Assembly: GCA_947085925.1 (NCBI GenBank)
Contig: CAMTYI010000004.1
Span: 2,891 to 66,890 of the forward strand
DNA length: 64,000 bases
Origin: an uncultured Gammaproteobacteria bacterium
GTDB lineage: Bacteria > Pseudomonadota > Gammaproteobacteria > Ga0077554 > Ga007554
Direction of reading: 5' to 3'
The stretch's first letter is position 1, and each line of letters opens with the position of its first letter. Under the pieces are notes generated by a model. That model was not told where the DNA came from, ran no database searches, and saw only the letters and a program-made list of their open reading frames with translations. Position numbers and translations under genes: made by a program. Below, in pieces: positions 14,711-14,831 of the stretch.

Positions 14711-14831
14711 ACCCCCTTTTTGTCCACGAAAAACACAAAATTCACGAAATAAAAAGATAAATTACTTCAGTAATTCACTGGATAGGTGATAAATTTCGTG
14801 TTTTTTCGTGAGTTTCGTGGACAACGGGGTT
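14711..14831. repeat. palindromic CACGAAA-heptad element, copy A
   Basis: Left arm GTCCACGAAAAACACAAAATTCACGAAAT and right arm ATTTCGTGTTTTTTCGTGAGTTTCGTGGAC. Three CACGAAA heptads at 9-10 bp spacing in each arm. A second copy lies at 44650-44800. Confidence 0.6.

Follow-up and report, generated by a model that had tools for sequence, protein, structure and literature searches.

Heptad-array elements in an uncultured gammaproteobacterium are MITE-like insertions, probably derived from cassettes that encode GxxExxY proteins

Miniature inverted-repeat transposable elements (MITEs), such as the Correia/NEMIS elements of Neisseria and others derived from insertion sequences (IS), are small and non-coding and have terminal inverted repeats and short target-site duplications. 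They are inserted between genes near gene starts or ends, are present or absent between relatives and give hairpin transcripts. Repetitive extragenic palindromes (REP) and bacterial interspersed mosaic elements (BIME; REPIN) are short palindromic extragenic repeats as well; their cognate REP-associated tyrosine transposase (RAYT) is a single-gene 'domesticated' enzyme flanked by repeats, and gene-less copies far outnumber gene copies. Here we describe two elements comparable to both, copies A and B, in a 64,000-nt stretch (the window) of contig CAMTYI010000004.1 from an uncultured Gammaproteobacteria bacterium (assembly GCA_947085925.1). Their inverted ends contain arrays of the heptad CACGAAA, and gene-carrying relatives with like arrays encode a GxxExxY protein, a candidate for the transposase role. 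We regard both copies as cargo-less, MITE-like derivatives of GxxExxY cassettes, probably mobilised in trans, with a probability of about 0.6.

The window copies have the structure of MITEs in size, absence of coding sequence, terminal inverted repeats, 5-bp duplication and, for copy B, an empty site. They differ from known MITEs in that the inverted repeats are built of three 9-nt-spaced heptads and the gene-carrying relatives encode a 125-aa PD-(D/E)XK protein and no recognised IS transposase. To our knowledge, no MITE family has an end motif as widespread as this one, which was found in at least 12 phyla. Unlike REPs, the elements here have target-site duplications and three direct heptads per arm in place of a single imperfect palindrome, and their partner is a PD-(D/E)XK protein (PF13366), not a Y1/HUH enzyme; neither GTAG nor CTAC was present in copy A. 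A preliminary description of this DNA had proposed a MITE/REP-like mobile element. Its MITE side was borne out by the terminal inverted repeats and 5-bp duplications, by a relative's exactly matching empty site and by the hundreds of related copies elsewhere; a known REP/BIME family does not fit, as the GTAG head is absent and the duplications are present.

The ends of Mu, Tn7, Tn402/Tn5053 and IS21-type elements are similar in architecture only, with several direct protein-site repeats per inverted end and a 5-bp duplication. Their sites are about 19-22 bp long, whereas the heptads here are 7-9 bp, and those elements are kilobases long and encode a DDE transposase with an ATPase. Tn7 also uses a PD-(D/E)XK nuclease, TnsA. 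No DDE transposase with an AAA+ partner recurred between or beside the arrays in 119 + 80 loci. Homing endonuclease genes, including that of I-Bth0305I with its PD-(D/E)XK catalytic domain, are likewise lone small nuclease genes that apparently promote their own spread. Homing copies the gene into one cognate allele by recombination with no target-site duplication, whereas the insertions here are at unrelated AT-rich sites, with 5-bp duplications and gene-less derivatives. No integron attC cores of the GTTRRRY type were seen by eye in copies A and B, no formal attC model being run. In Coxiella burnetii, the 23S rRNA intervening sequence (IVS) is a selfish, horizontally acquired element of about 0.4 kb (428 nt) with one small ORF (open reading frame), excised from precursor rRNA by RNase III (PMC4990558). 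It lies in rRNA helices and encodes S23p, whereas the elements here lie between protein-coding genes; the abstract of that paper reports no heptad arrays or target-site duplications for the IVS (PMC4990558).

The two copies comprise the following features (window positions):

14705..14837, plus strand (end1 to end2): copy A, whole element, 133 bp, delimited by the A/B alignment, a terminal motif common with other genomes and the flanking 5-bp repeat
14700..14704: left target-site duplication of copy A, TTTAC, an identical 5-mer where the termini predict it
14838..14842: right target-site duplication of copy A, TTTAC, likewise where the termini predict it
14705..14723, plus strand: outer terminus end1 of copy A, CCTCAAACCCCCTTTTTGT, aligning with the right end of copy B
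14724..14749, plus strand: left heptad array of copy A, CCACGAAA aa CACAAAA tt CACGAAA
14750..14793: central loop of copy A, 44 bp, non-coding, part of it common with copy B
14794..14820, minus strand: right heptad array of copy A, TTTCGTG ttt TTTCGTG ag TTTCGTGG
14821..14837, minus strand: outer terminus end2 of copy A, reverse complement TCTAAAAACCCCGTTGT, matching the left end of copy B
44647..44813, minus strand (orientation opposite to copy A): copy B, whole element, 167 bp
44642..44646: left target-site duplication of copy B, TTAAA
44814..44818: right target-site duplication of copy B, TTAAA, the final A being the A of the recF ATG
44664..44690, plus strand: left heptad array of copy B
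44769..44794, minus strand: right heptad array of copy B

Copy A lies in the ridA-rph spacer (RidA, PF01042, ends at 14699; the RNase PH gene rph begins at 14986) and copy B between dnaN (ends at 44591) and recF (begins at 44818), both as reported earlier. The extent first given for copy A, 14711-14831, was 6 bp too short on each side. CACGAAA was found in copy A at 14725 and 14743 on the plus strand and at 14794, 14804 and 14813 on the minus strand, with spacings of 9 and 9 in the left arm and 10 and 9 in the right; the middle plus-strand heptad is the one-base variant CACAAAA at 14734. All six heptads of copy B are perfect (44665, 44674 and 44684, plus; 44769, 44778 and 44787, minus). Of the earlier statement that each arm holds three CACGAAA heptads 9-10 bp apart, the spacing stands, and one of the six heptads of copy A proved degenerate; the term 'helical spacing' has to be dropped, the family-wide period being 9 nt, below the helical repeat.

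When both copies were aligned, A(+) matched B(-) far better than B(+), which indicates that the element has a direction and that its two ends can be told apart. The inverted arms with permuted heptad order noticed in the preliminary description are thus real and explained. Similarity between A and B reaches 17-19 bp beyond the arrays (CCTCAAACCCCCTTTTTGT followed by CCACGAAA at end1, TCTAAAAACCCCGTTGT followed by CCACGAAA at end2), and the terminal inverted repeats run to the element ends (CCTCAAACCCCCTTTTTGTCCACGAAA... versus TCTAAAAACCCCGTTGTCCACGAAA...). End1 of copy A resembles CCTAGAAAAAGC-type termini of other genomes. A 25-nt terminal pattern was present within the window in copies A and B only (0 expected), and TTTCGTGNNTTTCGTG with at most 2 mismatches had 7 matches in the window against 0.45 expected, six of them inside the two copies. 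Neither copy (133 and 167 bp) contained a GxxExxY or other coding remnant; the copy A loop, considered as a decayed GxxExxY gene, showed no similarity in six frames and was rejected as such.

The insertion of copy B was resolved to the nucleotide by comparison with relatives. In the window, 226 bp separate the dnaN stop from the recF ATG. One relative with 95% identical DnaN, assembled seven times independently (L201-L207; GCA_022842345.1 and Logan/ENA contigs), has 51 bp there in every assembly, and another whose DnaN is 77% identical (L208) has 24 bp; copy B is absent from the spacer of both. In the alignment against L201-L207 the extra DNA of the window is exactly copy B: the filled site reads ...GGCTAAATTACCC-TTAAA-TCTAAAAAC...CAAGG-TTAAA-TGAGCC and the empty site GGCTAACCTTATTAATGAGCC. 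Since the right repeat supplies, with its last A, the first letter of the recF start codon, one TTAAA is the native target and the other a duplication.

Target-site duplications had been suggested as a check, and they are present as TTTAC at copy A and TTAAA at copy B. The outer terminus CCTAGAAAAAGCAGTTR, about 18-20 nt beyond the arrays, occurs in many copies in other Proteobacteria and Desulfuromonadales. In a test anchored on the CCTNRAA terminus, perfect 5-bp duplications were found in four of five testable elements (TTTAC, copy A; TTAAA, copy B; TTCAA, L029; ATAAA, L074), which come from three different organisms; the fifth, L057, had an offset 7-bp repeat. A fixed-offset search over 73 array pairs gave no usable signal, as each lineage has outer termini of its own; its sole recurrence was TTAA, which is self-complementary, beside 'AAC'-type ends. 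For copy A no syntenic empty site was found: relatives with 88-97% identical RNase PH carry other genes upstream of rph, and the rph-proximal part alone aligns with them. A metagenome contig encoding an identical RidA stops within the element, as assemblers do at repeats. It is very likely that copies A and B are mobile insertions. Because the relative with 95% identical DnaN lacks exactly copy B, it is well supported that the window copies are MITE-like insertions and not a conserved operator, iteron or DnaA-box cluster.

The arrays belong to a widespread family. Species-representative genomes (596 Gb) were scanned with the pattern CCACGAAANNCACRAAAN{2,3}CACGAAA, and the triple-heptad arm was found in at least 119 genome stretches from at least 12 phyla, where a hand calculation gave about 0.3 expected by chance. 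The matches listed include Verrucomicrobiota, Planctomycetota, Acidobacteriota, Gemmatimonadota, Spirochaetota, Lentisphaerota/Kiritimatiellia, Cloacimonadota, Bacteroidota, Armatimonadota, Chloroflexota, Desulfobacterota and several orders of Gamma- and Betaproteobacteria. Among these listed matches, 57 arrays had a convergent partner at gaps of mostly 1-190 bp (few longer), most copies were without a gene, and the closest relative of the window's end1 was a 47-nt stretch at 94% identity in a Sideroxydans metagenome-assembled genome (MAG). Loops and flanks were unrelated from genome to genome. The triple-heptad pattern was also present in 79 viral-contig stretches, some 40-kb contigs carrying 4-7 arrays. 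The 'genuine repeat family' of the preliminary description is thereby confirmed well beyond the window.

The viral arrays (IMG/VR, L218-L296; e.g. L219 664-11083) were intergenic in the examples inspected, some being followed by AGGAGG..ATG; a crude ORF analysis of lone viral arrays gave no clear orientation relative to genes, and in viral contigs L219 and L283 short AACCG(C/A) repeats occur in runs around the arrays. A layout unlike the usual palindrome was seen in L013, 5415-5626, and L096, 104-414 (gut MAG UMGS1058): the arrays are in tandem, at intervals of about 91-98 bp, and a block of three CACGAAA alternates with one of three CACGAAT in the same orientation. In L029 (148-1649; Thiobacillaceae MAG) an IS4-like transposase gene, 389 aa long and recognised by eye, interrupts the loop; this element retains its own duplication TTCAA, and its loop sequence is common with an element of Gallionella (L025). 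Mixed heptad types were nested or adjacent in L098 (4624-4760), the L104 flanks and the loops of L028 and L100, with CACGGAA beside CACGAAA and ACGAATC arrays within a CACGAAA element, which suggests that several specificity classes can co-exist in one genome.

GxxExxY genes were recovered between arrays from both directions. In the loci selected by DNA motif, all five GxxExxY ORFs lie directly between arrays (L034, L038, L056, L098, L109), their start codons abutting or overlapping the last heptad; representative ORFs match TIGR04256/PF13366 with E about 1e-41. In the reverse test, 80 metagenomic loci were picked by protein similarity alone, independently of the DNA motif, and heptad arrays were found within 260 bp of the gene in 79 of them. 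The commonest layout was array(+)-gene-array(-) (34 loci), followed by array-gene-array-array (11) and whole palindromes on either side (6). An array typically consists of three heptads, and the 9-nt period was kept in 284 of 301 spacings. Where the heptad varies, it does so jointly in the two arms (CACGGAA, 12 loci; CGCGAAA, 6; CACCAAA, 1). Distant family members (40-56% identity) retain this architecture with other heptads: in five representatives (about 46-56% identity) an array flanked the ORF on one side or both, in three of the five on both, with the heptads CACGGAA/CACTGAA, CGCGAAT, CACAGAT and CACGAAT. The whole gene-carrying unit is about 430-470 bp with a single ORF of about 125 aa, and end2 of the window element is similar to the terminus TTGAAAAACCCACTGTCCACGAAA at the left of cassette L098 from Gallionella. 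Between neighbouring arrays GxxExxY accounted for 69 of the 104 longest ORFs, and no other ORF recurs; other cargo was limited to single cases, a weak DUF4926 match (L033) and the IS4-like transposase inserted in a loop.

Some cassettes show particular junctions. In the 'AAC'-type cassettes (L156, L157, L158, L162, L152, L176, L178) an ATG precedes the array, which is translated as M-N-(H-E-K/R)3, the 9-nt period being three codons. Their left junction is almost always ...ATGA followed by ACCACG, a stop/start overlap with the upstream gene, and the right junction is CGTGGT followed by TAAAAAnnGGAG..ATG of the following gene; several downstream genes have restriction-modification methylase-like N-termini, read by eye. 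Genes neighbouring arrays were read by eye as PIN-domain and nucleotidyltransferase-like. On plasmid pTS1 of Treponema saccharophilum (L304, 331266-331655), an annotated GxxExxY gene adjoins a Fic family gene and has a single 10-bp inverted repeat (CACGGATTCG / CGAATCCGTG) in place of triple arrays; these ends may be a decayed or minimal version of array ends.

The protein and the heptads vary together. In the close subfamily, residue 15 (I-Q-G-A motif, helix 1) is Gln in 57 of 60 CACGAAA cassettes (Met in 3), Arg in 12/12 CACGGAA cassettes and Gln in five of six CGCGAAA cassettes; positions 8 and 11 also co-vary with heptad type. Two further, distant Arg15 proteins likewise go with a G at position 5 of the heptad. 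A neighbour-joining tree made from residues 23-126, with the N-terminus excluded, places the Arg/G cassettes at three or more separate points, some of them interleaved with Gln/A cassettes. Gln-adenine and Arg-guanine are classic bidentate contacts. The co-variation suggests that the nuclease reads the heptads, and on this basis we think it probable that GxxExxY recognises the arrays. A binding-site array for an oligomeric protein, as proposed earlier, would then survive in a modified sense, as end sites for GxxExxY; the heptads have neither the look of an iteron nor that of a host operator. Recognition finds independent support in the spacers: in both arms those of the heptad strand are rich in purines and consequently usually not complementary (fully palindromic in 10/77 pairs). 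Selection thus seems to act on a strand-specific 9-mer, CACGAAARR, and not on a perfect stem, which argues against pure hairpin selection.

A PD-(D/E)XK survey lists GxxExxY as a family of unknown function with multiple horizontal transfers (PMC3424549). The E...PD...ExK active site is intact, P70-D71, E81 and K83 being invariant or nearly so. AlphaFold (AF2) with a diverse alignment gave a PD-(D/E)XK fold with a predicted local distance difference test score (pLDDT) of 94.9 and a predicted template-modelling (TM) score of 0.87; with a shallow alignment the pLDDT was 56. The best Foldseek match was the Cas4 SSO0001 core (TM 0.60, E 2e-4), followed by lambda-exonuclease-type enzymes, archaeal Hjc resolvases and a homing-endonuclease catalytic domain. 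T7 endonuclease I, the best PDB sequence match (E 0.04-0.07, YxPDF...VExK), ranked 47 in the fold search, which did not single it out, and is taken as a lead only. By its predicted structure GxxExxY is a generic PD-(D/E)XK nuclease, and we make no closer claim. The family comprises 18,295 representatives at 50% identity (E ≤ 0.001) and is rare on plasmids (8/72,556 records); no credible match was found with PADLOC defence models.

These observations can be combined into a mechanism. Each element has two terminal inverted repeats of about 45 bp, with an outer terminus of 17-19 bp and then three CACGAAA at 9-10 bp, around a short non-coding loop, and each window copy was inserted into an AT-rich 5-bp target that was then duplicated. 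Gene-carrying relatives have the single GxxExxY ORF of about 125 aa between the inverted arrays. The nuclease would bind the 9-nt-spaced heptads at both ends sequence-specifically, helix 1 and residue 15 contributing to base readout, and by cutting would help the cassette to move or be copied. For gene-less copies, among them the two of the window, a GxxExxY protein encoded at another place in the genome would act in trans. That GxxExxY is the mobilising enzyme is a tentative proposal, which we put at slightly under even odds. Somewhat more doubtful is the general form of the proposal, that GxxExxY cassettes (about 430-470 bp) are an unrecognised class of minimal autonomous mobile elements, in which the nuclease drives 5-bp-duplicating insertion and spawns gene-less MITEs in at least 12 phyla and in phages.

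Several points weigh against the derivation from GxxExxY cassettes and a mobilising role for the protein. We know of no transposition chemistry for a lone 125-aa PD-(D/E)XK protein, and a 5-bp duplication combined with multi-site ends typifies DDE systems (Mu, Tn7, Tn402). Duplications and outer termini could not be shown in most gene-carrying cassettes. No GxxExxY gene was present within the 64-kb window, and no copies were found in about 60 kb of relatives' contigs, two being visible in all. Proteins with Ile15 or Met15 occur with CACGAAA, CGCGAAT and CACGGAA, which makes the residue-15 rule one-directional in the wider family; residue 15 is moreover encoded beside the upstream array, and some co-inheritance is expected. 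Viral arrays are mostly single arms (73 single versus 15 paired), with one GxxExxY ORF in 727 kb of viral contigs, and for this reason the arrays may have a role independent of the GxxExxY protein.

The copies could instead be MITEs moved by a conventional transposase, e.g. a Mu/Tn7/Tn402-like DDE enzyme that binds several subterminal sites. GxxExxY, for instance a nuclease for addiction or defence, would then be no more than a passenger often carried in the loop. The 5-bp duplication and the three site-like repeats per end match the known DDE systems; most copies lack a gene, and other small ORFs, e.g. that with the weak DUF4926 match in L033, occasionally lie between arrays. However, no conventional transposase was recurrently tied to arrays in about 830 kb of array-selected loci, where the lone DDE gene (L029) is an IS inserted into a loop. 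The predominance of GxxExxY between arrays (69/104 ORFs) also speaks against a passenger, and the Gln/Arg to A/G co-variation in both arms would be unexplained if the protein never touched the heptads. We consider this explanation unlikely.

The hairpins themselves raise the possibility of a role in RNA, as an mRNA stabiliser, RNase III site or translational coupler, with spread being secondary; REP hairpins and the stems at the borders of 23S rRNA intervening sequences would be comparable. The RNA folding suggested in the preliminary description predicted strong hairpins with z about -6: copy A folds as one long hairpin (z -6.5 as RNA, -5.8 as DNA) and copy B gave z -6.1 as RNA, the heptads being paired and the spacers left as internal loops of 2x2 or 2x3. 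Each copy stands between two co-oriented genes and would be transcribed, and in cassettes the 5' array at the start codon and the 3' array after the stop would allow the mRNA ends to pair. Yet a structural stem would covary freely, whereas the heptad sequence is conserved across phyla; the spacers are usually not complementary, and the viral copies are mostly single arms. No promoter or intrinsic terminator above shuffle expectation was found in or beside the elements, and Rfam 15 had no family at gathering score at copy A or B; a permissive Rfam scan of copy A returned weak plant-miRNA hairpins alone (17-20 bits versus thresholds of 97-211). A primary role at the RNA level is improbable. Local effects of the insertions may nevertheless follow: a transcribed element would place a strong hairpin between ridA and rph or between dnaN and recF. 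Copy B is flush with the recF ATG and replaces the native sequence directly upstream of this start codon, with a possible effect on the host; the new upstream sequence AAGAGGTTTCAAGGTTAAATG has AAGG at a Shine-Dalgarno-like distance.

A host regulatory site, i.e. an operator or iteron array or a DnaA-box cluster, is very improbable. In its favour are the location of copy B among replication genes, an array architecture like that of cooperative binding sites, and the ends of copy B, which read TTATCCACG, an 8/9 match to the DnaA box. However, the site is empty in the relative with 95% identical DnaN, copy A has TTGTCCACG where copy B has TTATCCACG, canonical TTATCCACA boxes are found elsewhere (41421-43337), and the family adjoins unrelated genes in many phyla and has target-site duplications. 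The neighbours are ridA/rph and dnaN/recF, with no cognate rep or regulator gene alongside, and the position varies, which speaks against the iteron of the preliminary description and against a host operator. A DnaA-box or origin-related site (TTWTNCACA) was also rejected, exact boxes being present at 455 and 41421-43337 only and the copy B site being empty in relatives. Chance resemblance of two AT-rich intergenic regions, which the weak enrichment of lone CACGAAA in the window (16 versus 10 expected; 6/100 shuffles reach 16) would allow and which two unconserved copies alone would have indicated, is refuted by the double-heptad clustering (7 versus 0.45 expected), the 25-nt termini common to the two copies only and the hundreds of related copies in other genomes.

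Other features of the window were noted. Five perfect DnaA boxes TTATCCACA at 41421-41852 and 43295-43337, probably sites of the origin or of autoregulation, are divided between the region upstream of dnaA (three) and the dnaA-dnaN interval (two). The yidC-like and mnmE-like ORFs are on the dnaA strand, an unusual arrangement, their identities being inferred from ORF sizes only. A giant ORF of 3,238 aa occupies 1132-10848 on the minus strand; in the relative L201 an ORF of the DEAD/helicase type, over 2,100 aa long, lies near dnaA, in an arrangement different from that of the window's giant ORF. A cobalamin riboswitch (RF00174, 100.8 bits) at 62835-63059 on the plus strand, after the ORF at 61177-62721, was the sole match of the window at gathering score.

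No description of the arrays or of their association with GxxExxY was found in the full-text papers searched, which is absence of evidence and not proof of novelty. The window element is best described as a MITE, and the gene-carrying system behind it is possibly a new class of mobile element. In the organism itself, copy B has rewritten the sequence just upstream of recF within the dnaA-dnaN-recF-gyrB cluster. The family would explain unannotated intergenic palindromes and assembly breaks in MAGs of Verrucomicrobia, Planctomycetes, Acidobacteria, Methylococcales, Gallionellaceae and Desulfuromonadales. With genes nearly always bracketed by inverted arrays, a protein residue that co-varies with them and array-only derivatives that look transposable, the GxxExxY family is given a testable job. 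Its cassette may be the smallest self-contained mobile cassette in bacteria, and the pairing of Gln to Arg with A to G points to a small, possibly programmable DNA-recognition module.

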